In this document: positions 21,631 to 64,000 of the stretch, one piece after another
Position numbering within the stretch: position 1 is the first letter of the stretch
How the letters are laid out: every line of letters starts with the position of its first letter
Assembly: GCA_016777125.1 (NCBI GenBank)
Contig: JADHSC010000003.1
Location: forward strand, 15,164 to 79,163
Direction: 5' to 3'
Length of the DNA: 64,000 nt
DNA from: Candidatus Poseidoniaceae archaeon
Lineage (GTDB): Archaea; Thermoplasmatota; Poseidoniia; Poseidoniales; Poseidoniaceae
The notes under the pieces: model-generated
The model's database searches: none
Seen by the model: the letters and a program-made list of their open reading frames with translations, nothing else
What the model was told of the DNA's origin: nothing
Position numbers and translations under genes: made by a program

Positions 21631-23574
21631 TCGTTCCAAACGATCAGGTGTTCCCATGTCCCAAAACTTCGTATTATCCAAATATGCTGAGGCTTTCATT
21701 GCCATTTCGGGATAGACTGTTTCTTCCCAACTCCATGTTCCATCTTTACCGTGTTCGAGGAGAACCCTTTTCTCTACAACACTGGTTCCAGATTCATAGC
21801 CATTGAATTCAGATGGAGGAGATGTGCTCTTATCGTATTGAGCGATTTTCCCATCAACATGTAGAAGATTCATCTCATCATGTTCAGTTGTTACAGTAAG
21901 GGTTAACGGAGAGGATTCTTGTTCATGATAAGCGACAATTTCGCCATAATCGATTGGATGAAAATCATCGCCCCAAAGTAAAATGAATCGGTCTTGAAGA
22001 AGGTGCCTGGCATTCCACAGAGCACCTCCAGTCCCAAGTGGCTCGGATTCTTGATGAAACGTAAGGGCCATTCCTTCATGTCGGAAACCATCGAATTGCT
22101 CACCCAAATGCCCTGTTAGAATCAAAGCCTCCATACAACCTTGAGCGCCAGCCCAATCAAGAATGTGAGAAAGGATAGGTTTTCCGGACACGTCAATGAG
22201 AGATTTTGGCATTTGTTTCGTCCGTTCACCGAGACGTGTTCCCAATCCACCAGCTAGGATAACGACTTGGGGTAAGCGGTGTGCTTTGACAATCTCTGAA
22301 TACAAAGCACCGCTTTCTTTTAGTGTTCGTTCTTTGGTTTCAAAATCGACATGATAGAGGCCAAATCGTTGATCATAGCCTTCAGCCCATTCGAAATTAT
22401 CCATAAGACTCCAATGATAAAATCCACGTATATCCATCCCATCTGCAATGGCTTCACCGGTTATCTGCAAGTGACGCCGGATATGTTCAGGACGCATGTC
22501 ATCATCGTCATCTGCAACTCCGTTTTCAGTGACAATAATTGGAAGATTAAGGCATGAAACCATATCAAAAGCACGTCGCAATCCCTCAGCATACATGGGA
22601 TATCTGAAATCAGTTCGTTGTTCCCATGGACGAATCAATGGATCGATATCGACTTTAGTTGGCATGAACGGAGTGGCAAGAAGATGAGTGTAGTAATTGA
22701 CCCCAATGAAATCACTACTTCCTTTTAGTCCTGGAATTTCCTTTGAACGAAGAGCTGAAGGCGCCTTGAATCGTCCTGTCATCAATCCTTTAATCCAACA
22801 AAGATTGAACATTCCATCGAGAAATCGTGCTTGGAATCGGTGCAATGGATTCCAACGACGGTATGGATCGAAGATATTGATATTCTTCACCAATCCGATA
22901 TGAGCACGCTTACCATGCTCCATGGATTTCAGGGTTTGATAGCAACGGGCGTGAGCTCTCATAAGATTGGTTGAAACGATTCTAGTTTTCTTAAATGAGC
23001 GCTCACCTGGTGGAAACTCTCCCAAGACATATCCCATCGAGGCAAATACTGCAGGTTCGTTGATGGTACACCACCAGTCTATGCGGTCACTCAATACTTC
23101 AAACATTTTCACACAGAAGCGAATCCAATCGTCAATATTGTTCTCGTTCTCAAAGCCTCCTTTTTCATCCCACCAGAGAGGGTGTGTGAAATGATGGAGA
23201 GTTGCCATCGGTTGGATGCCTTTGTCAAGAAGTTGGTCGACAAGGTCCGAATACCATTGAACTGCATCCTCATCCCAGATACCTTGTTGTGGTTCAATAC
23301 GACTCCATTCGATTGAAAATCTGTAGTGTGAAACATTTAGATCTTTGATCAGTTGAATATCTTCTTTCTTTCGATTCCAATGATCGCATGCATCACCACT
23401 GAGTTGACCACTTTTTGAACGTGGCTCAAATGCAGACCAATTGTTGGTATTTCCACCTTCAATTTGATGAGATGCAGTAGCAACACCCCACATGAAATTC
23501 GGTGGGAAAAGATTTCCCGATAGAAGGTTTGTGTAGTCTACTGAGTCCCAATCACGATGTTCTTCAATCCCCAT
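21598..23574 (-). CDS. Fusion protein. N-terminal glycoside hydrolase family 1 (beta-glucosidase/beta-galactosidase). C-terminal sugar-1-phosphate nucleotidyltransferase. The ORF track starts at 23643. The Met at 23574 avoids overlap with the upstream gene.
   Basis: GH1 signature FMWGVATASHQIEGG, TENG nucleophile motif, NEP acid/base region. C-terminal VVILAGGLGTRLGERTKQMPKSLIDVSGKPIL nucleotidyltransferase G-loop. Confidence 0.7.
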   Translation of the reverse strand: MGIEEHRDWDSVDYTNLLSGNLFPPNFMWGVATASHQIEGGNTNNWSAFEPRSKSGQLSGDACDHWNRKKEDIQLIKDLNVSHYRFSIEWSRIEPQQGIWDEDAVQWYSDLVDQLLDKGIQPMATLHHFTHPLWWDEKGGFENENNIDDWIRFCVKMFEVLSDRIDWWCTINEPAVFASMGYVLGEFPPGERSFKKTRIVSTNLMRAHARCYQTLKSMEHGKRAHIGLVKNINIFDPYRRWNPLHRFQARFLDGMFNLCWIKGLMTGRFKAPSALRSKEIPGLKGSSDFIGVNYYTHLLATPFMPTKVDIDPLIRPWEQRTDFRYPMYAEGLRRAFDMVSCLNLPIIVTENGVADDDDDMRPEHIRRHLQITGEAIADGMDIRGFYHWSLMDNFEWAEGYDQRFGLYHVDFETKERTLKESGALYSEIVKAHRLPQVVILAGGLGTRLGERTKQMPKSLIDVSGKPILSHILDWAGAQGCMEALILTGHLGEQFDGFRHEGMALTFHQESEPLGTGGALWNARHLLQDRFILLWGDDFHPIDYGEIVAYHEQESSPLTLTVTTEHDEMNLLHVDGKIAQYDKSTSPPSEFNGYESGTSVVEKRVLLEHGKDGTWSWEETVYPEMAMKASAYLDNTKFWDMGTPDRLERLEEFLNKTSL

Positions 23575-23600
23575 ACTGGCACCACCAAAGCGATAGAAAT

Positions 23601-26198
23601 TCACTGGAGTCGAGACCAGGAACCATCGGAACCAACGTCCCATTGTTGTAATTCAGTACTCGCATCAACATACCAACCGGTTTCTCCTTGATTGGTTCCA
23701 GGTGCCGCTTGCATAACTCCAATTTGAGTGGCCTTGACTGCGAGTTCGTCTCTCAAAGCATCTTCGATAACAGGTGCTGAGTCAACAGAAACTTGTGCTG
23801 GAGGAGATTTAGGCTCGTCCTCTACTGGAGCGATGGATTCAGAGGAGACCACGTCTTCTTCGTCATCTTCTTCATCCTCATATTCATACTCATCATCATA
23901 TTCATCCCATTCTTCTTCTTTGGAATTACCTCGGCGAATGAGTACGATAAGAACTGCAAAAATCATCAGCAAGAAGACGATACCAATGGACATGGCAGTA
24001 TTTGTTGAACCAAGAGCACCTCCTAGAAGGACAGATTCAACATCATAAAACTGTTGCGAGATAAGTCCTTGCCATGCGACTGTGCATGAACGATCTGTAC
24101 CTGCTTCTTCGAGTTCGATTTCCCATGTATCGGATTTGACGTGACTGGCTTTTCCGGATGAACATGTGATACTGGTTTTATCTGGAACGACTTCAACTCG
24201 ATTCCCTTGGCTGTCCTCAGCCCAAACCTTGAGCAAGGTGACTTCACCTTGACTCAACGATTCGTTACTCACTGAAGTGAGAACACGCACTGGATCTCCT
24301 GGAAGAATTGTCAACGGAAGAATGACTGAAGCATTTCCTTGTTGAAGTTCAATATCATATGTCCCAGATATGACACCATCGAGTTGCCAATAGCCACGTC
24401 CTGTTGAAGAGGGTTCGATTGAAACAAAACCAGACTCTACTAGTTGAATATCTTCAGCAGGAGCAACGTTTCCGTGGACATCAACAATCTCCACGAAGAG
24501 GTCGCTGGAGATACCTGCTGTAATTATCAGTACATCTCCACCATCTGTGACGAGGGTGTTTTCTGAACCCGTGATTACATTGATACGAACTGCAGCAAAT
24601 ACTCCATCAGCGTTTGCTCGTATCTCATGCTCTCCTACTTCGGTGGGATACCATTTACCACCCGACATGAGTAAATCGAGTGTTGAATCAACACCATCTA
24701 TGGTCCAATTGACTGCAACAAATGGAATGATATTTCCATATGAATCTGTGAAATCTGGATCAAATTGCAAGAATGAATCTGCTGGAACCTCTGTACCTGT
24801 TTCTGGTAAGATAATGAACGCCAACCGGCCTGGTTCAACCATTTCTTGATATTCACTTTGGTGTAAAATACCAGTGTAATTATCGAAATATGTTGCTGAG
24901 AATCGAATGCTCTCAGTGAGTTTTGGAGTGAATGTTGCATAAGAGGAGAATATTTCAGATGATGATTGGTCGTTACTTGTTTTCGTAATATTACCATCGA
25001 CTTGCCATATATTTCCGAAAGCATCAGTCGCCTCATGGACCAAAGCAACTTGCAAACCTGCACTTAATCGAGGTAAACTTGGAACAAGTTGTGTGGAAAC
25101 TGCAGCCCCATGAACCACAGTGACTGTCTTTGAAGCAACAATGTCGGAATCAATGACTTCCATTGCCAAGGAACCCTCTTTACCAGGAGTCCAATGGATT
25201 TCATCGCCTACTTGAGCTACTGCACCATTACCAACGGTCCAATTTCCGATTGGAACTGGAACTGGAGAAGTATAGCCAGATGAATCGGTACGGACTGCTT
25301 CTAATCGATACACCTCTCCTGATTGGTAGGTTGTTTCCTCAGGCATAATTTGAATCGAAACAATGGCTGCATCAGCAGGAATGACTCTGATGGTACCATT
25401 ACCATAAACAGACCCTGCACGGATACTGAGATTCCAAACTCCTGGTGCTGAGGCAAAGAAGTAACCTTGGGCGGTAATACTTCCATTCTCGGCGGTCCAG
25501 ACTTTTGACCCCGCCAATGTATCATTCATCTCTTGACCGAATGAATCAACCAGTGCTGGAGTGAGTTTGACGCCAAATCCGCTACGAATCACAAGATTCT
25601 CCTCAAAGATAAATTCGAAGGGATCTCCCGCTATCGCTTCCATTGAAACTTGTTGTTCCATTTGATCAAAACGCGCAACCACTTCGTAGTCACCCAGAGT
25701 TGGAGGCGTCCACAATGGCTGCCCTTGCCCAACATATTCTCCATCAACACTCCATACAACACCAAGTCCAGTTCGAGGATTACCGTGTGAATCAAGGAGA
25801 TTGGCTTGAAGTTGGAATGGCTGTTTGGCCTTCGGAGATGTTGTGGTGTTGATCTCAATTGATTGACCCCAACCTGCCTCAACAGTCACCACAACAGTAT
25901 CGTTGAAGCCTGCATGTTCAGCTCGTATGGTTACTTGACCAGCCGACCAAGGAAAGAAGAGACCACCATCTTCGACTGTACCGTTTGTAGAAGACCACAT
26001 GATCTCGCCTTCGACAACGTTGTTCAATGCGTCGTAGATTGTTGCATCTAATTGTAGGACACCATCGGAAGAAATCGATGTTGAAGGCGTTGTGATAACG
26101 ACTTGGGCAGCGGGACCTGCTGCAGTTACTGGAAGGCTCGTCAACGGAACGAACATCAACAGAATGCACAAAAAGAATGCAGACTGTTTCGAACTCAT
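23601..26198 (-). CDS. Large cell-surface protein (865 aa). Signal peptide, Ig-like beta domains, C-terminal TM anchor, and an acidic Trp-containing cytoplasmic tail.
   Basis: MSSKQSAFFLCILLMFVPLTSLPVTAAG signal. C-terminal IGIVFLLMIFAVLIVLI TM, then EEEWDEYDDEYEYEDEEDDEED and a terminal GWYVD...QQWDV...W motif. Its start lies 8 nt after the end of the 3054-aa gene. Confidence 0.6.
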   Translation of the reverse strand: MSSKQSAFFLCILLMFVPLTSLPVTAAGPAAQVVITTPSTSISSDGVLQLDATIYDALNNVVEGEIMWSSTNGTVEDGGLFFPWSAGQVTIRAEHAGFNDTVVVTVEAGWGQSIEINTTTSPKAKQPFQLQANLLDSHGNPRTGLGVVWSVDGEYVGQGQPLWTPPTLGDYEVVARFDQMEQQVSMEAIAGDPFEFIFEENLVIRSGFGVKLTPALVDSFGQEMNDTLAGSKVWTAENGSITAQGYFFASAPGVWNLSIRAGSVYGNGTIRVIPADAAIVSIQIMPEETTYQSGEVYRLEAVRTDSSGYTSPVPVPIGNWTVGNGAVAQVGDEIHWTPGKEGSLAMEVIDSDIVASKTVTVVHGAAVSTQLVPSLPRLSAGLQVALVHEATDAFGNIWQVDGNITKTSNDQSSSEIFSSYATFTPKLTESIRFSATYFDNYTGILHQSEYQEMVEPGRLAFIILPETGTEVPADSFLQFDPDFTDSYGNIIPFVAVNWTIDGVDSTLDLLMSGGKWYPTEVGEHEIRANADGVFAAVRINVITGSENTLVTDGGDVLIITAGISSDLFVEIVDVHGNVAPAEDIQLVESGFVSIEPSSTGRGYWQLDGVISGTYDIELQQGNASVILPLTILPGDPVRVLTSVSNESLSQGEVTLLKVWAEDSQGNRVEVVPDKTSITCSSGKASHVKSDTWEIELEEAGTDRSCTVAWQGLISQQFYDVESVLLGGALGSTNTAMSIGIVFLLMIFAVLIVLIRRGNSKEEEWDEYDDEYEYEDEEDDEEDVVSSESIAPVEDEPKSPPAQVSVDSAPVIEDALRDELAVKATQIGVMQAAPGTNQGETGWYVDASTELQQWDVGSDGSWSRLQ

Positions 26199-51347: not shown

Positions 51348-52955
51348 TTGGAGGGTCGACCCCTCTACGCAAATATGTCTGCGGAGTGGGGGTCGATTTC
51401 GCAGGAATTAATGAGGAAAGGAATACTCGTTACCGCAGGTGTGAAAGAAATTTTACTTGCCCAATCGATGCCGATTGAGATTCTCAAACAGGGAGAGAAA
51501 ATTGGATTCCAGCGTGGGATGCTGACAGTATCTATTCTTGACCAGATGATTGCTGAGTTCGAGAAACTAAAACAACCAACTCCTGACAAAATGACTCAAC
51601 CTATCGGTCGGACTATTGCACCAATTAACGAACCAGAGCCCGTAAAAATTCAGTATCGGAATAATCTTCCTGACTGGAGAGAACAGGACTTTTCGGGACT
51701 AGCTACGGACGTAGACCTCGATATATTTGTTCATTATGACATCACAGGGAACAGTACAACTGAAGGGAAGATGGGAGATATACAAGCCTGTTTTAACGAT
51801 CGTCTAGACAGTATTCGAAAGATGATTGTTACAAATTCTCGATTACCAAGAAAACCTCAAGAAATTGGTCGATTGAATGTTGAATATCGCCGATATCAAG
51901 GATATGAAAACTTGGCAGTAGCAATTGGACTTGTCAATGAGCCTAGGCACACAAAGAACGGACACCTTATGTTTGGCTTGGAGGATGAAACTGGTGAAAT
52001 GAATTGTTTACTGACAATTCGGCAGGGGGATGATAGAGATCGTATGCATGAGCAGGTTGTAGAAGCTGGCCTCATGCCTGATGACGTGTTGGGCGTAAGC
52101 GGTTCGTTTTCACAAACAGGAGACATATTCTATGTCGATGATTTATTCTTCCCTATGAAAGATAAACACGACAAGGTAAGTGCTAATGTTGGAGTCAGTG
52201 TTGCATTTCTATCAGATATACACGTAGGATCAAAGACGTTTTTAGAAGCACAATGGCACAAAATGGTTCGCTGGTTTAACACAGATCCATTGGCTAAGAC
52301 AATCAAGTATCTTGTTTTGAGTGGGGACTGTGTCGACGGTGTAGGAATTTATCCAGGACAAGACAAGGAACTTGCCATACCTGATTTATTTGGCCAGTAT
52401 ACTGAATTCGCACGATTGCTCGAACTTTTACCCGATTGGGTTGAATGCATTATGCTTCCAGGCAATCACGATGCAGTCCGACCTGCAGAACCTCAACCTA
52501 CGTTCGAAAAAGACATTCAGCAGGATTACAATAAAACCACATTTGTTGGAAATCCCTGTGACTTTTCACTCCATGATGTCCGATTACTTTCTTACCATGG
52601 AAAATCAATTGACGATTTTGTTGCCGGTCTTCGAACTGTAACATATGCAGAACCGGTGGAAGCAATGCGTCAGATGTTAAGAAGACGACATTTAGCCCCT
52701 CAGTGGGGGGGTAAAACTCCATTATCACCAGAACTTGAAGATGGCCTTGTCATCAGAGAAGTGCCAGATATATTTGTCACTGGACACGTACATGGGCATG
52801 AGTGCATGGATTTCAGAGGAACAACTCTCGTTTGTTCTTCTACATGGCAGGATCAAACATCTTACCAGAAGATGCTCGGGTTCCAACCAAAACCATGTAT
52901 GTTGACGGTTATCAATTTACAATCCCATAAATCAACATCAATTCCTTTCGCTTGA
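51348..52955 (+). CDS. polB: DNA polymerase II (PolD) small subunit DP1.
   Basis: OB-fold, then calcineurin-like phosphoesterase motifs (LSDIHVGS, VLSGDCVDGVG, LPGNHD, GHVH). About 535 aa. Confidence 0.8.
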   Translation: MEGRPLYANMSAEWGSISQELMRKGILVTAGVKEILLAQSMPIEILKQGEKIGFQRGMLTVSILDQMIAEFEKLKQPTPDKMTQPIGRTIAPINEPEPVKIQYRNNLPDWREQDFSGLATDVDLDIFVHYDITGNSTTEGKMGDIQACFNDRLDSIRKMIVTNSRLPRKPQEIGRLNVEYRRYQGYENLAVAIGLVNEPRHTKNGHLMFGLEDETGEMNCLLTIRQGDDRDRMHEQVVEAGLMPDDVLGVSGSFSQTGDIFYVDDLFFPMKDKHDKVSANVGVSVAFLSDIHVGSKTFLEAQWHKMVRWFNTDPLAKTIKYLVLSGDCVDGVGIYPGQDKELAIPDLFGQYTEFARLLELLPDWVECIMLPGNHDAVRPAEPQPTFEKDIQQDYNKTTFVGNPCDFSLHDVRLLSYHGKSIDDFVAGLRTVTYAEPVEAMRQMLRRRHLAPQWGGKTPLSPELEDGLVIREVPDIFVTGHVHGHECMDFRGTTLVCSSTWQDQTSYQKMLGFQPKPCMLTVINLQSHKSTSIPFA

Positions 52956-53618
52956 AGGGAGTTCAATGTAATCTAGAATCTTCATGAGATTCTTTTCATA
53001 GATAATTGGAACATTAGATGCTTCGAAGGCTTTGATAGACGAGTCTCGACTAGGATTAAACCCAATGAAATGACTTCCATCGATCATCATGGAGAGATCC
53101 ATCTCAGAATCACCGACTGAGAGCACGTTTTTGGGTTCAAATCCATGCATTTCAATGAGTCGTTGAATGATATCACCTTTACCACTCGCATGAAGTCGGC
53201 AAATACCGTTATCACTCAAGTAATCTCCATCATCGAATTCAAACCCATTCGCAATCCAGTCATCAACTTTGAGCAAAGCTGCAATACTGCTGACAAATAT
53301 GTCAACACCTGCACTTACGATAGCAACATAGACACCACGTTCTTGCAACAGAGCCACGAGTTCTCGTGCACCAGGCATCAATGAGATGCCTGAATACATG
53401 CGAAAGATCTCATCCCTATGGATAGGGGATCGTATCTCCTTCCACATAGCAATGTCTGATCGCATGAACTCAACATCAGAGATTTCTCCAGCAATGAAGC
53501 GAGAGAGATTCTTACTGTTGTCTGTTCCAAAGCCATCATGGAGTGTTTTCCATGAACTTACCGAGTCAACCAGAACGCCATCACAATCAAAGACTACACA
53601 GAGACATTCGTCGCTCAT
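52938..53618 (-). CDS. HAD-superfamily hydrolase, phosphoserine-phosphatase-like.
   Basis: Motif I VVFDCDGVLVD and motif IV GDSEMDLSMM, with a cap domain between them. Confidence 0.55.
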   Translation of the reverse strand: MSDECLCVVFDCDGVLVDSVSSWKTLHDGFGTDNSKNLSRFIAGEISDVEFMRSDIAMWKEIRSPIHRDEIFRMYSGISLMPGARELVALLQERGVYVAIVSAGVDIFVSSIAALLKVDDWIANGFEFDDGDYLSDNGICRLHASGKGDIIQRLIEMHGFEPKNVLSVGDSEMDLSMMIDGSHFIGFNPSRDSSIKAFEASNVPIIYEKNLMKILDYIELPSSERN

Positions 53619-53723: not shown

Positions 53724-54254
53724 TCAGACCTTGTTGTACTCTAGGTCGCTGTAGGTCTTGATGACCGATCCTTCACCAGGTCCTGGTTGGTATGTGATTC
53801 GGATTGTTCCATCCGTAATCGCAGTACCGTCAGGTGCATGGGTTCGAACCATAATTTGATCACCAATACCGAAGGTTGATTCCTTGTAGGTTCCTTCGTC
53901 TTCTACCTTATCGAAGAAGGTAACGAATGCATCACTGTTCGATGGACTAAATCCATACACATCACTTGTGTTAGCAAGGGATGTAGCATAGGATGTTCGT
54001 GTTCCAGTTGAATCAGTGTACAGAACTGTCACGATGACAGACTGAGTTGAAAGTTCAGCTTCAGTCTGATCAACACTGATTGCCCAGTATCCATCTGCAG
54101 CACCGAGGTTCTCATTCACTTTATCGAAGGTAACTCGAGGAGTTCCTAACTTACCAGTCTCTGCAAGAGAAGATGCCCAAACATAGATGACACCGGAGAG
54201 AACAACTGTGATTGCGACCATCAAGATGGTTGCGATAACAGGGCTCACTGCCAT
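53724..54254 (-). other. In-frame archaeal type-IV-pilin-like module (Pilin_N/class III signal-peptide-like helix plus a ~150-aa globular part). It is either a C-terminal domain of the giant protein or a separate small gene that starts at the internal ATG.
   Basis: MAVSPVIATILMVAITVVLSGVIYVWAS closely resembles the conserved N-terminal hydrophobic helix of archaeal type IV pilins (AVSPVIGVILMVAITVILA...). Confidence 0.45.
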
Positions 54255-57200
54255 TTCGTCATCAACGATTCTGGTGTCTTCTTCTACGTCTTCTTCATCT
54301 CTGCGGCTTGACATAGCAAGGGCAGTAACGAAGAATCCTGCGAGAGCAACGACAACGAGGCTTGGAGCGAACGATGGAACTGATCCAAGTCCACTACCGA
54401 GCGAAACAACACTTGGTATTCGTCCAGTGTTGTTTGCTGCAAGGAAAGTGCTTGCAGGTTGGTTTGCATGGTTGCATACAGGAGCTGTTTCTGTAGAGTA
54501 CATCACGTTGTTACACCAATCGCTGTCTTCGAGGAGAGGACGGCGTTCGGATGTCTTGGTTGCATCGCTACCATATTGACCTGGCTTGGACCAATCGTCA
54601 CCTTGTTGTCCACCAGAGTTAGCTCTGTGGGATTTAGGGTCGTCGGTCTGGAAGCGGTCAGAAGGAGCCTTGCTCAAGTCACAATCATCATCCAAACATG
54701 TTAGAACATCCATCTCGACATAGATTTGTCCAGAGGAGTTAACGATGTAGACGTATTCCTGAATGACCATAGTATCTCCGTATGCAGGTACTGGATAGTA
54801 CTTGACATTCTCGGACTCACCATGACCACCATCTGTGTGGAATGTTACAGCCAACATGTGGTCGTATGTGAACGGTCCAACATCTCCACCAGCACCAATG
54901 GTTACCTCAACAGGTACGTATGTACCTGAGAGAACGTTATTGATTCCGAGGAAGTCAAAGCCGATTGCATCATCGAAGTAGTAGTCTCCAACCAATTCAC
55001 GAACGTTTTCAACACGAACACCAATTTCCTGAGTAGCAACACCTTGGGTGTAGCTGGCAATTGACATTACTGCTGGATCGTAGTTAGGTACGTAACTTGG
55101 TGCAGTAGCAGTATCCTTCAGTACAAGACGGATTTGACAGAAGTCAGAACCGCTCGGTCCGATTTGGTGGATACCGTTATCGTTCAAGTAATCAATTTCC
55201 CAAGCGTTAGCGTTGGTCGTTGCATCTGGAACCAGTTCGAAGACGAGGTTGTCGTCCTGGATGGTTGCAGTGAAGTAGTTCTGGTATGTACATTGGTCAG
55301 TTGGTTCAACAGTCCATGCCAAGTCAGCAGCGTTATGATCAACGTCATACTTGACTGCAGACAAGTCATAGGTCAAGTTCTGTACGCTTGTGTCATCTTC
55401 CATGAGGGAGATGGACCAAGGAGCAACTGGTGTAGATCCGTTAGCGGATGTTACAACAGCACCGGTAGTAACGTCCCAGTCGAGAACAACTGGAGCATCG
55501 TTAACTGGGCTGACTGAGAAGTCAACAACTACATTGTCTGCAGCTGTGTTCTCTGCACCGTCATCACTCAGAGTGAGTGTAACAGGACATGTACCACCGA
55601 GTTCGTTACCAGTGTTTTCAGTCATGGTTAGTTCGTTAGCGACAACATCGACACTGAAAGCAATACAGTCAGTAGGTACGGATGCACCCCATGTGTAGAC
55701 TTGACGGGTCGGGTCTTGCTCGTTGTCCATATCACGGACGTATGACTTGCTTGCATTGGAAATATCTCCAAGGAACTTGGAAACACTGCCGAATCCTTCA
55801 GGAACAATGTTCGTGTAAGATCCGTCATCTACGAAGACTGGCATACAATCGATACGCTCTGTGTTACAGATGACTGGCTTGTCGTTAATGTTGTTAACAG
55901 TCAACGTCATGTTCTTGGTATCAGTCAATCCGTGGCTGTCTGTTACAACAAACTCGAATTCGATTGTACCGAACTGGTCATCGAGAGGTGTGATCGATAC
56001 TGTGTGTCCGTTCTTGTTCCAGTCAACCAATACATTGCTGTGAGCAACAGTTGTTCCTTCAGTAGCGGTCCAAGTCAATGTAGCTTCATCGTCTTGTACG
56101 TCATCTGCAAGGTTTGTGAGAGACATGGTGTAAACACCGCTGTCTTCATCAACTGCATCATCTGCAAGTGTGGCTTGGATTTCAGGACATGCACGCTTGA
56201 TATCGACGGTCAATTGTTGGTTCGTTGCCATAGAGACAGCGTCAACAGTAGCCCAGTCGTAAGCACAATCTGCTTGTGTCTTAATCATGACATCGTAATC
56301 CTTAGCAGCGCCAGCAGTGGTTGAACCCTTGTAGGTTCGGTAAACCAATACTTCATCACTGATGCTTCCAGTCTCAAGATCATCGTGAGTTGTCTCGATG
56401 GAGATGTACTCAGTTAGTGTTTGAGCGCCAGTAGTTACAGTCTGGGATGGGTGAACATTTTGGATGTTCGCCGTTCCATCTTGTAGGATAGCAACGATGT
56501 TTACAGCATCAGGAGTACCGCCAAGGCGGCTGAACGGAATTGCGATTTCGAAGAAACCAGCAGTTGTTGTTCCCAAGTCTGCATCAACAGCATCTGTCGA
56601 CATTGAACTTGCTCCCCAGCCAAGGAATCCATTAGAGTATAGATCCATGTTGGTATCACTTGTTGCCCAGAACAGGTAATCTGCTTGGACAGGCAATGTG
56701 TGAGCTGCGTTCAAGTTGTAGCCAGTGTTTGAACCACCAGCAACGACGTCCAGGTAAATCAACAGGTCGTTGGTTGCAAGATCTTCACCGGTCATACCGA
56801 TGTAGAGTGCATCACCTTCGCTGTATGTTACAAGGAGGTCGTTTGTTCCGTCTCCAGAAACCATACCAGGCATAGCATCGTCAGATGGGTTCAGTGGTGT
56901 TCCACCAATCCAATCAGAGTCGTCACCGTCTACAGCCATGATATCTGGCTGGAAAGCAGGTGATACGTATGCTGCACGTGTTCCATCAGTTGAGAGAAGA
57001 GACATACCAACAGCAGATGCAGTACCTTGTAGGTGAGTTGCATCGAGGCTGAACAGGTTTGCTTCATCGATGGTTGCGGAAGCAACGATACTAATTGCGT
57101 TTGAATCGAGTGTGTTACCAATACTGGTTACGTATGCATTCGATCCTGCATTAATTTGCGTTGTTGAAGCAGACCATGTGAGGTTCTCGACAGATCCTAC

Positions 57201-60200
57201 AGATTCAACTGCGTGAAGGGCTGTTGTTGCAGTAGAGGTACCGCCGTCCCAACGGAACTCAGTATTCTCTGCGTAAACACCAACGTCTCCAGCAGCATCA
57301 AGTGGGTATATCCACGAGTAGTCACCGTCAACCATGTACAATCCAGTACCTGTTGCACCACCATCGACTGAAGCGTCGATAGCAGTTACAGTTGCATCCT
57401 CAGCATAGACACCAGCAGTTGATCCTGCAACGGATGCAGCACCTGTTAGTGTTAGCGTAGCGTCTTCGATAGAGACACCGTATGCATATCCGCTGATGTC
57501 TGTTCCAGAGAGGGTAATGTCATCTCCCGAGTTGAGAGAAGACATACCGATACTGCCAGAGACACCTGTTCCAACAATGGTTGAGTCGACATCATTGATG
57601 TCGCAGCCATCGGTGACGACTGCATTATCGCCCATGTTGATGGTGTTCAATTGGCTCTGAATAGTTACAGAGTTACAGTCGACGAAATCAAGACCAATTG
57701 CGTTAGGAGCAACACGACCAGGACTGAGTCCGATTGTGTTGTTCTCAACAACTGGTCCAGAGTATCCACCGGTACTGGTACCGTAGTAGACAGCGATGTT
57801 TGCTCCACCGTCACCCCATGTATCAGTAACCTTCAGCGTGTATGATCCAGCAACGTTGTACGATGTTAAACGGTTGTAGGCTGTGTTGGAACTGAATGAT
57901 CCTGCAGCCCATGTATCGGTTGTTCCATCTGGCTTTGTAATTTCAAGGCCGATTTCTGAACCCCAGCTATCAGATTCTAGGTCGACATACGCAGTGGAAC
58001 CAGAAGGTACCGTAAATGTGCATGAAGCAGTAGTTCTGTATGCATTGGATGCAATTGTACACAATGATGTGGAAGGTGCAGGAGGTGCTTCTGCCGAATC
58101 AATTCGGATACCACCGTCTGCGTCCAATAGAGTGTTGTTGGAAACATCACCATATCCACCGTTGATGGTGATACCAGGCTTGCTAGCATCACTTACACCG
58201 GTGATAGAGTTGCCGTCCAATAGATAACCATTTGTGTTAATCAATTGAACTGCAGTTTCTGGTCCATCGAATGTGTTGTCAGTAACTGTCAAGCGCTTGG
58301 TCGATTGATCGTATGCTCGAACACCGTATTTACCGGTGGAACTGCTGAAGGTGTTATCCTTGACAACGGCATCATCGGCATATGAGTTCGAGTAGAACCA
58401 AACATCGGCTATTTCTCCACCATCAAGGAAGGTGTTTCCTTCAATAGTAGTGTTATCTGCACCAAACTGGCTAGCACTATGAGTGTAGGAGTATCCAGAT
58501 CGTTGGAAGGAAATTCCAGCGCCACAGTCTGACAATGTACTATTAATGACGTATGAGTTATCTGAACCATAGAAGTTGATACACACGTCTGTTGATGAGA
58601 TAGCATTGTTCAGTGGTGTGTAACCCTTGTAATGCGTCATTGAAACGTTATCAATTCGCAGCCAATCAGAGACACAGTCATAGTTGTTCCAAGTGGAACA
58701 GTATCCCATACCGCTGGTAATCGACGCCACTGGGTTCAATGTTGAATTCTTAATCGAGATATCCATTGCTTGGTATAGGTAACCGATTTCAACACCGGTT
58801 TGTTGACCAGATGTTGGGTTAACTGCAAGACCATACACTTCAGATTCGTGAAGGTACAATTCAGGTGCATCAGTTCCACTTTGAGCATACCATCGTTGAG
58901 TATCACTGAACGTGTATGAACCTGTAACCAAAACCTTGGTGTTGTTCCAGTTGTGTTCTTCATTGTCATCGAAGTACATGAATGGAACGTCAACCATAAT
59001 TGTCTTACCAGACATGTCTTCAGGAGTTGCTCCGTAGTAACCATACTCCATGTAGGATCCACCATCACCGTCAGTCAAGGATCGAGAAGAACCAGTTCCG
59101 AGGTATCGTGAACCGCTGCATCCAGCAACCATAACGTATGATGAACTGCTGTATGTGTAACAGACACGTGCTTCGATACGATCGTTCAAGTCAATAGTTC
59201 CAGTGAGGCCACTCGTATCTGAAAGACTGAGTGTTTCGAAAGCATATCTGAAATCACCCTTACTGGATGTGTATTCAATCATAGCAACAGTAGCTGCCTG
59301 ATATCCCGCCAGGTTGTCGGTGGTCGTACCTGAAGAGTCAACACGAACAGTTCTGAATTGTATTCCAGAAGCATCTCCATTGGAATCGGTTGTACCTGTT
59401 CCAGTGATCTTCTTGTCAGCATTCATCAGAACAACGTTTGTTCCTTGAACACCAGACCCATCTGCTTCAATTGTCATTTCCAATTCACGCATTCGTTCGA
59501 AATCACCAGTTCCAGTAACTGATACCTTAGAAGTATCAACTGTACCTTCAATGAAGTCAACCTTGCTTGAACCTGTTACAACAACGTCGTGTGTCGTACT
59601 CGCAAAGGCCGAGTCTGTTATCGTGAACTCTTGACTTCCTGCCGTTTCGAGACCAACATCGTTTCCTGCTAGAGTAATACCGTCAAATACAACATTCTTA
59701 CTTGTAAGTGGGCCGTACTTGTATGCAGCTCCAGCACTGTTGGTGATGGTACCTGAAAGATCTCCACCGAAGTTCTTGACGTAGTAAATACCAGCAGTGT
59801 TCTGAGCATCAAAGTCCATGTTTGTCAGGTCGATTGAACCGGAACCTGAGGAAGATACGAGCATTCCGTAATCTCCACCGTTAACTTCAATGTCGTCCAT
59901 TGCAGCGGATACAGCGCCAGTTACTTCAACACCAGAATCGGTTGGTGAAGTAATGTCGATAGATTCGAATATTCCAGCGGCAAAGTTACCACCAATTTCG
60001 ATTCCATTATCTGCTCCAGTGATGACTCCATTCTTGAAAGAAGCAGTACCGCTGTCTCTGAGATAGTCTCCGAGATCGCTTGGATCATTACCAGCACGAG
60101 CGACAATGTCAAGTCGGTCTTGGTAATTGTCTGCACGGTTGTGGAGAACATCAACATACATAGTAACCTTAGAGATTGAACTATCGGAAATATCTACGAC

Positions 60201-63200
60201 TGGGAAAGACATACGAGCGCCTTGTCCTGGATTCATGTAATATGAATATGCATAATCGAGACAGATGTTGTATGATCCTCCAACGTATCCTTCAACAGGC
60301 TTGTATACCCCTTGTCCACCATGGTAAGAGGTGTAGTAGTAGCCCCAGTAATGGTATGGGTAATATCCGCTGTTTGGTGTTGTGTCAGCATCAATTTCAG
60401 ACCATCGGAATCCGAATTGGTCTGGGTAGTAGTAGTAACCAGGATAGGATGGGAAGGTCTGAGGACCTTGAGGCCAATAGCGCCATAGGTAGTACATGTA
60501 ACCGTCAAAGTTACTTGTAGCGGATGGCCCATAGCTGTAACCGTATTGGTTACAATGCCATGATGCAACTCCACCTTCACCACCAGCGTATGTGTCAGCA
60601 CCGTTTCCAGACTTAGGATCGTTTGCACCCCATGGGTAGTATCCCATCTTGTCTGGTGTGGTAATGTTCTCAGAAACTTCTCCGCTTCCATCATCGTAGG
60701 TAACTTCGATGTTCCAGCGGTCAGTAATCATGTAGTACTTGCTTGTAGCATAGTTGTAGGTTGGGTGAGCATTTCCACCACCATAGATGGAGTTAGCACC
60801 AACTTGCAGATAATCTGAAGTTCCAAGGAAGGAGGAGAGGTCTACTGCATATGTTGTCCATCCAGTTGATTGTCCTGACAATGAAGTAGAACGGTAAATG
60901 GTTGGAAGGCTCATTCCACCGTAGACATCGACACCAACAGTGTTGTCAGTTGATGTGAATCCGTCGATTTGCGGAGCACCGTTGTAGGCTTGTATACCAA
61001 CAGCAGCGTTAGAGACTGCGAGGTTGGTGTATGAACCACTTGCTTGTTCAACCCAAAGGGCTGTGCCAGTGTTCGCTACGTTGATGATGCTGGAGGAAGC
61101 TATGTCAGCTGTTCCACCATCAACCTTGACGGTTGCCATCTCAGTAGAACTTGCAGAGGAACCGTAAACAGTACCTGAGTTCTTCATGATTAGCGTAGCA
61201 CCATCTCCAACGTACAGAGCAGACCCTGTAGTTGCATCTTGAGCAACATCACGGACAATACCGCCATCAATTTCGAGTGTTCCATCTTGGATATCGATTG
61301 TCAGAGGGTATGTTGAAGAAACCGCCTTCAATACTCCAGTGGCTACTGAAGATTTTCCTACAAGCAACTTACCACCATTCGATAGTGTTAGTACAGGAGT
61401 ACTTGTTGCAGTCGACTTGACTGCTAGAACAGCACCCATGAGTTTGACGACACATCCATTGAGGTTGAGATCTTCAGTCAATGTCATTGGTGTTCCATCA
61501 AATTCGTAGATGACTCCTCCAGCAGCGGTTGTACCGTTTGTAGGTAGACCCGCTCCGGTGTCAGCATCAGTCCATGCTGCCAACCAAGAACAGTCCATGT
61601 TGGTTCCATTGAAATCAACAGGGGATGGCTCAAGAAGAAGAGCATATGAACTGCCAATGGTAAATCCACTGGTCAAATCGCTTGCATACCAGGTGTCACT
61701 CGAGAGAGTCTCGTTCTGTCCAGCAGGTCCGAATGCACGGAGGTTGTGATCGCTGTATGTGTTTCCAGCACTGTCTCCAGTGATGACCCACACAGATGCT
61801 TCACCGTTTGCATCAGTAATGTGAGATCCGACTTCGAAGAGTTCGGCTCCCGCTCCTGATACAACACTAGCGCTGACAACGTGTCCACTCTTGTTTACTT
61901 CTTCGATAGTTGAGTTAACAGCTTCGAGTCGGTATGCACGCAGAGTTGCAGTACCACCGTAGTAAATCAATGCAGAGGATGATGTGTAAACATCACAATC
62001 TGATGTAGCACCGTTCGAGTCAGCACAATCATCAGTGTTCTGTGAAACATCGATAAGACGTACTTCAGCGTTTGAACTTGCATAAGCAAGGTAAACACCG
62101 CTTCCAGCATTGGAACTGGTAATATCAACTTCACCAATAGTCATCTTCGAGTTACGAGCGTACAGAGCGTGGTCTGTGCTTGATGTGTGGGAAAGAGTTC
62201 CCCCATCGACGACAAAGTTGTTTGGTGCAGCGCTGCTTGAACAGCTGCTGTATACTCTGTCGGAATCGATGGTTGTTACATCAATCTTCCATCCACATCC
62301 TGCTACACCAAATCGACCAGAGTCGAGATTTGCAACAGACATAACATCAGTCGAGATAGCGTTCCCTGAGATGTCAATGTGTCCAGCGGTTATATCATTA
62401 AACATCGAAGGTTGAATTCGAGTCATAGATATGTCGCCAGAATCGATGTTGTGGAAGATAGCGAAATCTCCAGAAGGTCCGTTTGCTGTGCTTGAAGAGC
62501 CACCAGGAGTGATGGATAGCGTAGCAGTTCCAATGTCGACGTCTGTCATGTTGATAGAACCAAGAGCATTGATCGAGACACTTGAGTATCCAGGAGCATC
62601 AAGGTTGAAGATGTTCACTTCGCTGGATGTACCAAATGCTGAATCCAATGCAACTCCAGTTTGTGCAGATCCACTTGTTGTGAAAGAAGCACTAACGTTT
62701 GAGATTGTTACATGTTGCAAATCTGTATCGATGAGGTTCTTGTATGCATTCTCAATTGTTACGTTCTCAACATGGAGCATTCCACCAGTAGAACCTGGAT
62801 AGTTGACGATAGCGCCGCCCCATGATTCGCCGTCAGAGTTACAATTCGACATCGTTCCTTCCATGAGCATAGCGTTTGCGCTGCTTGGCAGGTTAATACA
62901 AGCCTTGTCAGCCCCACTAATTGCGAAGTTCATCATCGTAATTCCAGTTCCTTGTCCACTGCCGTGACTGATTGCAGTCTCGACGTTGGTGAATGTAACT
63001 TGACTTAGTGTGAAGTTACCGACGTTAGCGTTGGAGTAACATGGTCGTGTACCACCGTTGCTGTCAACACAGTATGCGTTGTAGTCTTGGTGTCGTGAAC
63101 CAGCAGTGATTGCAGCAGTACTGGTGTTGTTGAAGTCAACGTAACTGAATACGTGTCGGTCATCAGTACCAGCGGTTGTAGTACAATCGTCTGTGAAAGA

Positions 63201-63980
63201 GAGACCCTTCCATTCTGCACCTGCAGCACCCTCGAAGAGGATATGATCGGTGGAGTTTCCGATAGCCTTGACTGAATCGCAAGCACCATCTATGGAAATT
63301 CCCTTACCTTGTTCGACTTGTATGACTGTTCCTGGCTGGATTGTTAGATCTCCACCAGATACAGAGAGATAGTCGCTGCTAGGGCTGATTCGGTACGGTG
63401 AACCTTCATTGTCCCAGATACATTCTACATTGTTTCCTGAACAGTCGAGGTCGTTGTCGACATCTGTACCCTTGCCTTCGAATGGCATTGTACGGACATA
63501 GACACCACAATCGTATGCTGTGTTATCATAGCAGTAGTAGCTGCTGTAATAGCCCCACCATGGTGCAATTGTACCAGGTCGAGCTGCAGAGTTACTAGAG
63601 TATGGCAAATCAGGCATGCTTGTACCCCATGTAGTAATACCACGTTCAAGGGATTGAGAGCCAGTGTCAATCATGTAGAGGTAACCGTTACGACCAATTT
63701 GAAGTCGGTCGTCAGTGTCGTCACCATCGAACGATTTCTGGAAGTAATCGAAAGTAAATCCAGAAGGAAGGTCGATGTTCGCGTTACATCCAGTCTTGTA
63801 TTGGTTCCAGTAGTAACTGTAAGAACAGTAGTAACCAGTTGGCGTACCACCTGATGAACCAGAGATAACCTGTGCAGCGTTAGAAACAGGCTTGATACCT
63901 GTTGAGAACGCTTCGTATCCATGGTCATTTCCATCAGTTGAAATTCTGTAGTTGGATGAATGCGGGTTGTTACCAGCCAT
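53724..63980 (-). CDS. Giant cell-surface protein (>3418 aa; the 5' end very likely extends beyond the window). Contains beta-helix and adhesin-like domains, a Tyr/Trp-rich low-complexity block, and a C-terminal TM anchor.
   Basis: Uninterrupted ORF to the window edge, with no signal peptide at the in-window Met. Repeated NxTxxG/DNTF right-handed beta-helix-like repeats. Hydrophobic segment PSLVVVALAGFFVTALAM followed by SSRR. Confidence 0.6.
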   Translation of the reverse strand: MAGNNPHSSNYRISTDGNDHGYEAFSTGIKPVSNAAQVISGSSGGTPTGYYCSYSYYWNQYKTGCNANIDLPSGFTFDYFQKSFDGDDTDDRLQIGRNGYLYMIDTGSQSLERGITTWGTSMPDLPYSSNSAARPGTIAPWWGYYSSYYCYDNTAYDCGVYVRTMPFEGKGTDVDNDLDCSGNNVECIWDNEGSPYRISPSSDYLSVSGGDLTIQPGTVIQVEQGKGISIDGACDSVKAIGNSTDHILFEGAAGAEWKGLSFTDDCTTTAGTDDRHVFSYVDFNNTSTAAITAGSRHQDYNAYCVDSNGGTRPCYSNANVGNFTLSQVTFTNVETAISHGSGQGTGITMMNFAISGADKACINLPSSANAMLMEGTMSNCNSDGESWGGAIVNYPGSTGGMLHVENVTIENAYKNLIDTDLQHVTISNVSASFTTSGSAQTGVALDSAFGTSSEVNIFNLDAPGYSSVSINALGSINMTDVDIGTATLSITPGGSSSTANGPSGDFAIFHNIDSGDISMTRIQPSMFNDITAGHIDISGNAISTDVMSVANLDSGRFGVAGCGWKIDVTTIDSDRVYSSCSSSAAPNNFVVDGGTLSHTSSTDHALYARNSKMTIGEVDITSSNAGSGVYLAYASSNAEVRLIDVSQNTDDCADSNGATSDCDVYTSSSALIYYGGTATLRAYRLEAVNSTIEEVNKSGHVVSASVVSGAGAELFEVGSHITDANGEASVWVITGDSAGNTYSDHNLRAFGPAGQNETLSSDTWYASDLTSGFTIGSSYALLLEPSPVDFNGTNMDCSWLAAWTDADTGAGLPTNGTTAAGGVIYEFDGTPMTLTEDLNLNGCVVKLMGAVLAVKSTATSTPVLTLSNGGKLLVGKSSVATGVLKAVSSTYPLTIDIQDGTLEIDGGIVRDVAQDATTGSALYVGDGATLIMKNSGTVYGSSASSTEMATVKVDGGTADIASSSIINVANTGTALWVEQASGSYTNLAVSNAAVGIQAYNGAPQIDGFTSTDNTVGVDVYGGMSLPTIYRSTSLSGQSTGWTTYAVDLSSFLGTSDYLQVGANSIYGGGNAHPTYNYATSKYYMITDRWNIEVTYDDGSGEVSENITTPDKMGYYPWGANDPKSGNGADTYAGGEGGVASWHCNQYGYSYGPSATSNFDGYMYYLWRYWPQGPQTFPSYPGYYYYPDQFGFRWSEIDADTTPNSGYYPYHYWGYYYTSYHGGQGVYKPVEGYVGGSYNICLDYAYSYYMNPGQGARMSFPVVDISDSSISKVTMYVDVLHNRADNYQDRLDIVARAGNDPSDLGDYLRDSGTASFKNGVITGADNGIEIGGNFAAGIFESIDITSPTDSGVEVTGAVSAAMDDIEVNGGDYGMLVSSSGSGSIDLTNMDFDAQNTAGIYYVKNFGGDLSGTITNSAGAAYKYGPLTSKNVVFDGITLAGNDVGLETAGSQEFTITDSAFASTTHDVVVTGSSKVDFIEGTVDTSKVSVTGTGDFERMRELEMTIEADGSGVQGTNVVLMNADKKITGTGTTDSNGDASGIQFRTVRVDSSGTTTDNLAGYQAATVAMIEYTSSKGDFRYAFETLSLSDTSGLTGTIDLNDRIEARVCYTYSSSSYVMVAGCSGSRYLGTGSSRSLTDGDGGSYMEYGYYGATPEDMSGKTIMVDVPFMYFDDNEEHNWNNTKVLVTGSYTFSDTQRWYAQSGTDAPELYLHESEVYGLAVNPTSGQQTGVEIGYLYQAMDISIKNSTLNPVASITSGMGYCSTWNNYDCVSDWLRIDNVSMTHYKGYTPLNNAISSTDVCINFYGSDNSYVINSTLSDCGAGISFQRSGYSYTHSASQFGADNTTIEGNTFLDGGEIADVWFYSNSYADDAVVKDNTFSSSTGKYGVRAYDQSTKRLTVTDNTFDGPETAVQLINTNGYLLDGNSITGVSDASKPGITINGGYGDVSNNTLLDADGGIRIDSAEAPPAPSTSLCTIASNAYRTTASCTFTVPSGSTAYVDLESDSWGSEIGLEITKPDGTTDTWAAGSFSSNTAYNRLTSYNVAGSYTLKVTDTWGDGGANIAVYYGTSTGGYSGPVVENNTIGLSPGRVAPNAIGLDFVDCNSVTIQSQLNTINMGDNAVVTDGCDINDVDSTIVGTGVSGSIGMSSLNSGDDITLSGTDISGYAYGVSIEDATLTLTGAASVAGSTAGVYAEDATVTAIDASVDGGATGTGLYMVDGDYSWIYPLDAAGDVGVYAENTEFRWDGGTSTATTALHAVESVGSVENLTWSASTTQINAGSNAYVTSIGNTLDSNAISIVASATIDEANLFSLDATHLQGTASAVGMSLLSTDGTRAAYVSPAFQPDIMAVDGDDSDWIGGTPLNPSDDAMPGMVSGDGTNDLLVTYSEGDALYIGMTGEDLATNDLLIYLDVVAGGSNTGYNLNAAHTLPVQADYLFWATSDTNMDLYSNGFLGWGASSMSTDAVDADLGTTTAGFFEIAIPFSRLGGTPDAVNIVAILQDGTANIQNVHPSQTVTTGAQTLTEYISIETTHDDLETGSISDEVLVYRTYKGSTTAGAAKDYDVMIKTQADCAYDWATVDAVSMATNQQLTVDIKRACPEIQATLADDAVDEDSGVYTMSLTNLADDVQDDEATLTWTATEGTTVAHSNVLVDWNKNGHTVSITPLDDQFGTIEFEFVVTDSHGLTDTKNMTLTVNNINDKPVICNTERIDCMPVFVDDGSYTNIVPEGFGSVSKFLGDISNASKSYVRDMDNEQDPTRQVYTWGASVPTDCIAFSVDVVANELTMTENTGNELGGTCPVTLTLSDDGAENTAADNVVVDFSVSPVNDAPVVLDWDVTTGAVVTSANGSTPVAPWSISLMEDDTSVQNLTYDLSAVKYDVDHNAADLAWTVEPTDQCTYQNYFTATIQDDNLVFELVPDATTNANAWEIDYLNDNGIHQIGPSGSDFCQIRLVLKDTATAPSYVPNYDPAVMSIASYTQGVATQEIGVRVENVRELVGDYYFDDAIGFDFLGINNVLSGTYVPVEVTIGAGGDVGPFTYDHMLAVTFHTDGGHGESENVKYYPVPAYGDTMVIQEYVYIVNSSGQIYVEMDVLTCLDDDCDLSKAPSDRFQTDDPKSHRANSGGQQGDDWSKPGQYGSDATKTSERRPLLEDSDWCNNVMYSTETAPVCNHANQPASTFLAANNTGRIPSVVSLGSGLGSVPSFAPSLVVVALAGFFVTALAMSSRRDEEDVEEDTRIVDDEMAVSPVIATILMVAITVVLSGVIYVWASSLAETGKLGTPRVTFDKVNENLGAADGYWAISVDQTEAELSTQSVIVTVLYTDSTGTRTSYATSLANTSDVYGFSPSNSDAFVTFFDKVEDEGTYKESTFGIGDQIMVRTHAPDGTAITDGTIRITYQPGPGEGSVIKTYSDLEYNKV

Positions 63981-64000
63981 GTATCCAGCACCAGGGTTTC

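Follow-up and report, generated by a model that had tools for sequence, protein, structure and literature searches.

A type IV pilin module at the C-terminus of giant membrane-anchored surface proteins of Poseidoniales archaea

Streptococcus sanguinis PilB and PilC are modular type IV pilins whose pilin module comes first, so that normal cleavage of the leader leaves the adhesin exposed on the filament. Archaeal pilins of the Pilin_N/DUF1628 kind, such as Haloferax volcanii PilA (PDB 8fj5) and Ignicoccus hospitalis Iho670 (5kyh), are small, with a processing site ~7–17 residues from the start behind a short basic leader. Here we describe a gene of a Candidatus Poseidoniaceae archaeon in which such a module stands at the other end of the protein, instead: the predicted site falls, not near an N-terminus of its own behind a short, usually basic leader, but at about residue 3,250 of the open reading frame (ORF), behind a transmembrane (TM) segment and an acidic loop. 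The gene lies in a 64,000-nucleotide stretch of assembly GCA_016777125.1 (contig JADHSC010000003.1, positions 15,164 to 79,163), the whole of which we call the window. The Poseidoniales (Marine Group II) are described as the most abundant planktonic archaea of the surface ocean, and are uncultured; their attachment to particles and phytoplankton has been inferred from gene content, and archaellum-based adhesion was proposed by Rinke et al. (PMC6461757).

A first-pass annotation of the window had described an ORF of more than 3,400 codons that passes through a TM anchor and an acidic linker and then, uninterrupted by a stop codon, into a near-consensus type IV pilin helix. It left three options: a real adhesin–pilin fusion with two membrane segments, a small pilin gene nested in frame and initiated internally, or a lost stop codon. 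Translation of window positions 53724–54800 recovers exactly the string that it quoted, VPSFAPSLVVVALAGFFVTALAMSSRRDEEDVEEDTRIVDDEMAVSPVIATILMVAITVVLSGVIYVWASS, followed by 144 residues and the stop codon at 53724–53726 on the minus strand. From the N-terminal side, the end of the protein (Table 1) consists of the motif VPSFAPS, an 18-residue TM segment (TM1), the pair RR, an acidic loop of 19 residues, the site DDEMA/VSPVIATILMVAITVVLSG (a slash marks predicted cleavage throughout) and a beta-sandwich of 144 residues; written out, it reads GSVPSFAPS-LVVVALAGFFVTALAMSS-RRDEEDVEEDTRIVDDEMA-VSPVIATILMVAITVVLSGVIYVWASSLAE and then the 144. The Thr/Ser-rich domain of ~150 residues noted in the first pass corresponds to these 144, of which Ser and Thr make up 24%; there is one N-x-S/T sequon, and no Cys.

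That the helix belongs to a pilin is borne out by profile searches. The last 176 residues match the Pfam model Pilin_N (PF07790) at 35.8 bits (E 1.5e-8; curated cut-off 25.2 bits) and TIGR02537 at 36.3 bits (E 2.7e-9; cut-off 20 bits). As judged from sequence, the resemblance to pilins is beyond chance, and the first pass's concern that no profile might match, or that the helix might be an unrelated second TM segment, falls away. The best sequence matches in the PDB are the Pilin_N pilin of H. volcanii (8fj5) and Iho670 of Ignicoccus. Deposited mature chains of Iho670 (5kyh, 3j1r) start with VSPVIAT at residue 1, and the expected cleavage in the window protein is therefore between Ala and Val, where the sequence offers what a class III signal peptidase site calls for: a small residue at -1 and a hydrophobic helix behind it (A/VSPVIAT). 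Two AlphaFold (AF2) models, from alignments of 36 and 47 homologues, both contain the TM1 helix (residues 14–34 in the first), a loop without order, a helix of 29 residues and a beta-sandwich predicted with confidence, i.e. the long N-terminal helix and beta-sandwich head of the pilin fold. In the second model, of the last 358 residues (pTM 0.52), pLDDT over the beta-sandwich is mostly 76–94, with one block at 54; the juxtamembrane domain has low confidence, and the model is uninformative on docking of the head there. When the two models were compared with known folds, they scored 9.0 and 9.9, respectively, against the H. volcanii type IV pilus (8fj5_A), 8.1 and 8.5 against FlaF (4p94_A), 7.5 and 7.2 against the A. 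pernix archaellin (7txi), 7.3 and 7.6 against a Cuniculiplasma pilin (8rey_M), and 7.2 and 7.0 against FlaB1 (5ya6). Foldseek returned mainly generic Ig matches.

The fusion is widespread. A 358-residue C-terminal query found 348 relatives, and junction statistics were compiled on 108 homologous proteins. Relatives that carry an organism name come from metagenome-assembled genomes (MAGs) of Poseidoniales, Thermoplasmatota or 'Euryarchaeota', and every relative, named or not, that reaches the junction has TM1, loop and pilin within a single protein and a single frame (108 proteins, down to ~37% identity). An exhaustive HMMER search with the 176-residue module alone located it at the very end of proteins of 3,639, 4,595, 4,572, 5,559, 4,539 and 4,372 amino acids (aa), and likewise in proteins of 4,640, 2,785, 2,360, 1,816 and 1,167 aa; the weaker matches are ordinary pilins of 150–200 aa with the helix at residues ~10–45. 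A scan of species-representative genomes found at least 531 related loci, of which the best 80 were analysed. All are from Poseidoniales MAGs, the closest 98% identical to the window, except two on evidently mis-binned contigs: CAXQWT010000116.1 (L027), filed under 'Salipiger bermudensis', and NZEQ01000026.1 (L046), filed under 'Verrucomicrobiales bacterium', both probably binned in error.

No stop codon separates TM1 from the pilin helix in any of these 80 loci or in any of the 108 proteins, and a lost stop codon is thereby excluded. An open frame reaches the end of the sequence examined in 76 of the 80 loci, and in 45 of them it spans the full 10-kb upstream flank (at least 3,360 codons); in the remaining four, an upstream stop occurs at 671–2,304 codons. 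Might neighbouring genes have been joined by an error of sequencing or assembly, or in a pseudogene? Long-read assemblies do break this gene: in two that were pilon-polished (L001, 1–11476; L002, 1–11539), it is split by frameshifts into 8–10 same-strand ORFs, from which gene callers output 'complete' pilin-containing proteins of 491–512 aa that are, in fact, gene fragments. The errors observed split the gene, however, and never join it, and the junction is in frame, with its flanking residues strongly conserved, in every one of the 108 database proteins and of the 80 species-level genomes, which are independent of one another. We give an artefact of any of these kinds practically no credence.

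Conservation extends to the individual parts of the module. TM1 is 18 residues long in 93 of the 108 homologues and is followed, in the junction consensus, by [SG]-R-R; the loop is 19–20 residues long in 76, with a net charge of -6 to -10 in 99. The pilin helix is nearly invariant in both of our alignments, A1 and A2. In the VPSFAPS motif (consensus V-[PA]-S-F-A-P-[SG]), F and P are present in 106 of 106 sequences, S in 103 and A in 101, and forms of it recur in distant lineages whose ectodomains are unrelated (TPGFVPS in P0136, SPSFAPS in P0203 and P0223, SPSFAPG in P0179). A membrane-proximal region of ~180 aa accompanies the C-terminal module across the Poseidoniales homologues; AF2 confidence over it is low, and in A2 its residues E91, W95 and N98 are invariant and R86, P88 and N97 at least 90% conserved. 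Ectodomains of other kinds, e.g. glycine-rich ALK_LTK_GRD repeats, are found in a divergent group (P0203, P0213, P0223, P0224, P0176, P0179), whose loop is shorter and basic (+4 to +7) but which retains SPSFAP-TM and D/E-x-A/VSPVIA. The cassette of TM1, loop and pilin thus predates any one ectodomain. Among the three options with which the first pass began, this body of sequence conservation supports the first, a real and conserved fusion with what appear to be two membrane segments.

Table 1. Positions of the giant gene, the parts of its C-terminal module, and other genes in the window
Feature	Position	Strand	Remarks
Giant surface-protein gene	53724..64000	(-)	open to the end of the window, which includes at least 3,424 codons of it
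Conserved juxtamembrane motif RRPLLEDSDWCNNVM	54501..54545	(-)	within ~180-aa membrane-proximal region
VPSFAPS motif	54360..54380	(-)	immediately N-terminal to TM1
TM1	54306..54359	(-)	hydrophobic; predicted stop-transfer, outside to inside
Predicted cytoplasmic loop	54249..54305	(-)	RR cluster, then acidic stretch to D-D-E-M-A
Predicted cleavage	between 54249-54251 (Ala codon) and 54246-54248 (Val codon)	(-)	
Type IV pilin N-terminal helix	54159..54248	(-)	Pilin_N/TIGR02537 match; predicted inside to outside
Beta-domain	53727..54158	(-)	Ig-like beta-sandwich head; predicted extracellular
HAD-family hydrolase gene	52938..53618	(-)	downstream neighbour, outside module; conserved synteny marker
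Large surface protein, 1,331 aa	802-4797	(-)	
Large surface protein, 865 aa	23601-26198	(-)	
Large surface protein, 3,054 aa	26207-35371	(-)	
Large surface protein, 901 aa	40827-43532	(-)	

The context of the predicted site is conserved in the fused proteins as strongly as in free pilins. In the fused proteins, position -4 is D and position -3 is E or D (103 of 108 in each case), -1 is A and +1 to +4 are VSPV without exception, while -2 varies (Q24, A20, S19, M12, E12, T7, G6; n = 108). Acidic residues ahead of the helix, which had seemed anomalous in the first pass, turn out to be the consensus among the free pilins of the lineage. In 125 free pilins from the same searches, -4 is D, N or E, -3 is E or D, and -1 is mostly A (112), otherwise G or S, giving the pattern [DN][ED]xA/VSPVIA, as in MNNENRNDEA/VSPVIATILMVAITVVLAGVLYVWASSLAG and MRKKNIREDEEA/VSPVIA. 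Several of these carry the name Candidatus Poseidoniaceae or Poseidoniales at NCBI (MDP6869831.1, MDP6639622.1, MBA4734888.1), and since free Poseidoniaceae pilins carry N-[DE]-E-A/VSPVIA, acidic residues at -3 and -4 are normal for the lineage. The window helix is identical to those of the free Poseidoniaceae pilins at 26–28 of 30 residues. Because both the recognition context and the core helix match those of pilins from its own lineage, the module may well still be a substrate of the prepilin peptidase and a client of the pilus machinery, and it is this combination that makes, in our view, the strongest indirect argument for that status. Relatives of the conventional build, with the pilin module first and a large extension behind it, came up in the same searches: P0175 (491 aa), P0196 (409 aa), P0231 (829 aa) and P0339 (1,711 aa), the cluster of the first, which has a lamin-tail domain, being named Poseidoniales by NCBI. 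P0175, P0196 and P0231 represent N-terminal modular pilins that Poseidoniales encode as genes of their own. The pilin repertoire of the lineage thus seems to be wide.

The Met that the first pass had pointed to just before the helix is there: its ATG, at 54252–54254, opens the 176-residue stretch. Initiation at this codon, or at position -7 in other lineages, would yield a small free pilin, either besides the fusion or in its stead. Of 89 loci, 32 carry an in-frame ATG at -2 and 38 carry one at -7, most close relatives having one or the other. This exceeds the ~2% per codon expected, although the loci belong to no more than a few clades; such a clade-dependent excess is not that of a conserved start, and may reflect either the small number of clades or a secondary internal start. 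Neither Met is family-wide, however (-2 in 12 of 108, -7 in 23 of 108), and in 16 of the 89 loci no ATG falls within the 20 codons ahead of the site. The leaders that would result, MA or MAEDDAA, have no positive charge, in contrast to the K/R-containing leaders, mostly of 7–17 residues, of free pilins, and a nested gene would leave unaccounted for why frame, TM1 and loop length are kept everywhere. We consider it very improbable.

How, then, might the fused protein be used? We lean toward a model in which adhesin, TM1 and loop together serve as an oversized prepilin leader that is removed by class III cleavage at A/V, giving one pilin per adhesin. An N-terminal Sec signal peptide would export an ectodomain of ~3,900–5,300 aa; the 18 residues of TM1 would halt transfer, leaving the RR cluster and the 19–20-residue acidic loop in the cytoplasm; and the pilin helix would re-insert N-in/C-out, taking the beta-sandwich head outside. 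Any ordinary prepilin has this topology, except that adhesin, TM1 and loop would stand here where a short leader peptide normally does. Cleavage of Ala/Val (DDEMA/VSPVIAT) at the cytoplasmic face, by the class III (prepilin) signal peptidase, would then yield a type I TM-anchored adhesin with a short acidic tail and, at the same membrane site, exactly one mature pilin. The mature helix being almost identical to that of free pilins, entry into the same filament or machinery is possible, and the released pilin would join it probably as a low-abundance subunit. For the window module, topology, cleavage and polymerization are all inferred, whereas its architecture and the conservation of that architecture, the homology to pilins, the conserved site context and the fold are shown by the data above. 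If the A/V cut does take place, an adhesin of more than 3,000 residues would be the longest prepilin 'leader' known. The family lends itself naturally to testing how large an N-terminal cargo such a peptidase will accept.

Several points weigh against this. The archaeal peptidase PibD tolerates varied leaders, but to our knowledge none near this size has been reported, and we know of no precedent for processing of a substrate with an N-terminal extension of more than 3,000 aa. Free pilins usually have basic residues at -5 to -8; the loop has none there, its positive charge being the RR beside TM1, and its length is tightly conserved (19–20 residues), a constraint for which a leader that is thrown away has no use. 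Nor is the machinery close by: the 64-kb window encodes neither a prepilin peptidase nor an assembly ATPase or platform protein, and a prepilin peptidase was not found in 1.5 Mb of related loci by a crude filter for G-x-G-D-[VILAM]-[KR] plus multiple TM segments.

Some of these same features would suit the main alternative, an uncleaved protein. TM1 and the pilin helix might form a permanent hairpin with the beta-sandwich at the base of the adhesin, a pilin-descended module that no longer polymerizes and that acts as a rivet to keep a 4,000-aa adhesin from being pulled out under load, or as an envelope-binding foot in the manner of FlaF/FlaG. FlaF binds the S-layer; its fold is among the better matches of our models, and 'FlaG/FlaF family flagellin' is the name that JGI gives to such proteins. 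Constant lengths of 19–20 residues for the loop and 18 for TM1 are what a structural hairpin would call for, genes for filament machinery are not adjacent, and anchoring is a local theme, other giant proteins of the window being held by a single TM segment with an acidic tail. Yet at E up to 1 the FlaF/FlaG family models find no match. Were the protein left uncleaved, there would be no role for an invariant Ala at -1 and acidic -3 and -4 that are identical to the peptidase site of free pilins; and a near-invariant helix in common with those pilins (26–28 of 30) is the signature of a filament core or of a contact with the machinery. We regard the permanent hairpin as possible, though unlikely, and continue to prefer cleavage.

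The first pass saw in the fusion a surface-filament or anchoring system coupled to the adhesins. The coupling of pilin to adhesin stands; with no machinery gene in the window, the link to a filament system is a proposed one. Type IV machinery was not found beside the free Poseidoniaceae pilin locus L086 either, and a T2SSF platform gene lies ~10 kb upstream of the copy of homologue P0132 in L090. The archaellum operon, itself type IV machinery, is reported from all Poseidoniaceae genera (Rinke et al., PMC6461757). From that report, the free pilins and the one T2SSF gene we infer that the lineage has the machinery, and from the free pilins and the literature that it has the peptidase.

A second cut has also to be considered. 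In form, VPSFAPS-TM-RR resembles a sortase-type signal—motif, TM segment, Arg cluster—and the 1,127-aa neighbour at locus L087 ends in VPGFAPSITLVVTCLLAVALVGSRRRRSGQ and a stop, a stand-alone VPGFAPS-TM-RRRRSGQ tail from which it follows that a motif of this type can occupy a true C-terminus. If an archaeosortase-like or other envelope protease acted on VPSFAPS, at the outer face of TM1, while the prepilin peptidase acted on A/V, the gene would encode a doubly processed polyprotein: the ectodomain would be cut loose from TM1 and joined anew to a lipid, the envelope, or the pilin or filament made along with it, and one gene would supply an adhesin and its own filament attachment point, 1:1. Searches with the C-terminal sorting-domain models of NCBIfam (E up to 10; four junction and four trimmed peptides) gave matches, among them PGF_CTERM, Heimdall-CTERM, MYXO-CTERM and LPXTG, that are all below cut-off. 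Against TIGR04126 (PGF-CTERM; cut-off 24.5 bits), the window peptide has no match, P0136 scores 8.1–8.2 bits and the stand-alone L087 tail 13.1 bits. Among the ORFs of the window and of 1.5 Mb of related loci, stand-alone SFAPS-TM-RR tails occur only in L087, which is not from Poseidoniales, and we found no literature linking an archaeosortase with Marine Group II (MGII). Double processing seems to us improbable.

The gene itself is cut by the window. The ORF list on which the first pass relied placed its start at ATG 63980; no stop codon occurs upstream of that ATG, and the frame runs unbroken to base 64000 (NPGAGYMAGNN...), so that the gene must be truncated by the window edge. Its N-terminus and signal peptide fall outside. 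The residue at the edge aligns with position 212 of P0121 (3,639 aa) and with position 519 of P0263, a close homologue of 3,946 aa that is N-truncated, too; the latter puts the probable full length at ~3,900 aa or more. Full-length homologues of 4,372–5,559 aa (P0122, P0124, P0125, P0131, P0132, P0134) have Sec-type N-terminal signal peptides. The part of the ectodomain within the window has a NosD beta-helix, Big_9 and cadherin-like domains (Pfam NosD, Big_9, Cadherin_5, ahead of Pilin_N), and it is these that suggest the label 'adhesin'. The HAD hydrolase gene downstream is found also in L001–L004 and L091, and these loci are orthologous on that account. On ENA contig ctg495766 (ERZ26167216; 3.0 Mb; L090, L091), there are three copies of ~4,370 aa (P0132, P0294, P0295) with ~90% identity; the two examined are alike in their surroundings, with ECH upstream and HAD or PolD/CinA downstream, and the three could be either true paralogues or a chimeric assembly of related strains.

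Elsewhere in the window are four more large surface proteins (Table 1), each with an N-terminal signal peptide and a single C-terminal TM segment, and none with a pilin. Three have strongly acidic cytoplasmic tails, e.g. EEEEEEEEEEKE and DDDDWDDDYDEDDED; that of the 901-aa protein is short and of mixed charge. The 3,054-aa protein has five CBM96 matches, and the 1,331-aa protein a zinc ribbon within its cytoplasmic tail. Two further ORFs combine domains in unusual ways—a GH1 glycosidase with a nucleotidyl-transferase domain, and an amino-acid permease with a C-terminal EF-hand pair—at 21598–23643 and 9510–11171, respectively, both on the minus strand.

As to origin, a TM-anchored adhesin gene may plausibly have been read through into a pilin gene downstream of it, and such read-through might be a route by which new pilin-linked adhesins arise. 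At two loci from another archaeal lineage (L087, 7539–15003; L088, 432–7896), a free pilin gene directly follows the fused gene: the fused gene (1,167 aa) is succeeded by a 182-aa pilin (MKRFMSREKRA/VSPVIAT...) and then by the 1,127-aa protein.

The pilin domain match is not in itself new, since automatic labels such as 'FlaG/FlaF family flagellin' and 'archaellin/type IV pilin N-terminal domain-containing protein' are already attached to proteins of this family (e.g. MEC8576648.1, 4,578 aa). Labels of this sort on 4,000-aa proteins may inflate the counts of motility genes in metagenomic surveys. In the searchable full-text literature, we found no description of a C-terminal pilin on a membrane-anchored giant protein, or of pilins in MGII/Poseidoniales; a census of archaeal type IV pili (PMC4858521) and a paper on the pili of Thermoplasmatales (PMC12448462) do not mention C-terminal pilin fusions. 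What appears to be new is the placing of a known domain, and with it a known processing logic, in an undescribed and widely conserved architecture. A conserved, syntenic gene that couples an adhesin-like protein of 4,000–5,500 aa to a pilin provides a concrete link, open to test, between these proteins and type IV machinery.

Set beside the systems that it most resembles, the window protein differs from each. Free and modular pilins of Poseidoniales themselves are the closest: MDP6869831.1 (175 aa) and the lamin-tail protein MBA4734888.1 (491 aa) have the same site context, share 26–28 of 30 helix residues with it, and probably share its peptidase and machinery, too. In the modular ones, however, the pilin module is N-terminal and the extra domain follows, whereas here the order is reversed. 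ArlF and ArlG (FlaF/FlaG; 4p94, 5tug) are set apart by the lack of a model match and of an archaellum operon here, and by a helix and a site that match pilins of its own lineage, instead. With PGF-CTERM/archaeosortase signals (TIGR04126) it has a general form in common—Pro/Phe motif, hydrophobic segment, Arg cluster—but the match is below cut-off, and the signal is not C-terminal, ~195 residues following it. Like PilB and PilC of S. sanguinis, it joins adhesive and pilin modules in a single polypeptide; unlike them, and in reverse of all modular pilins described, it carries the pilin module last, so that cleavage would not place the adhesin on the filament but would separate the two parts.

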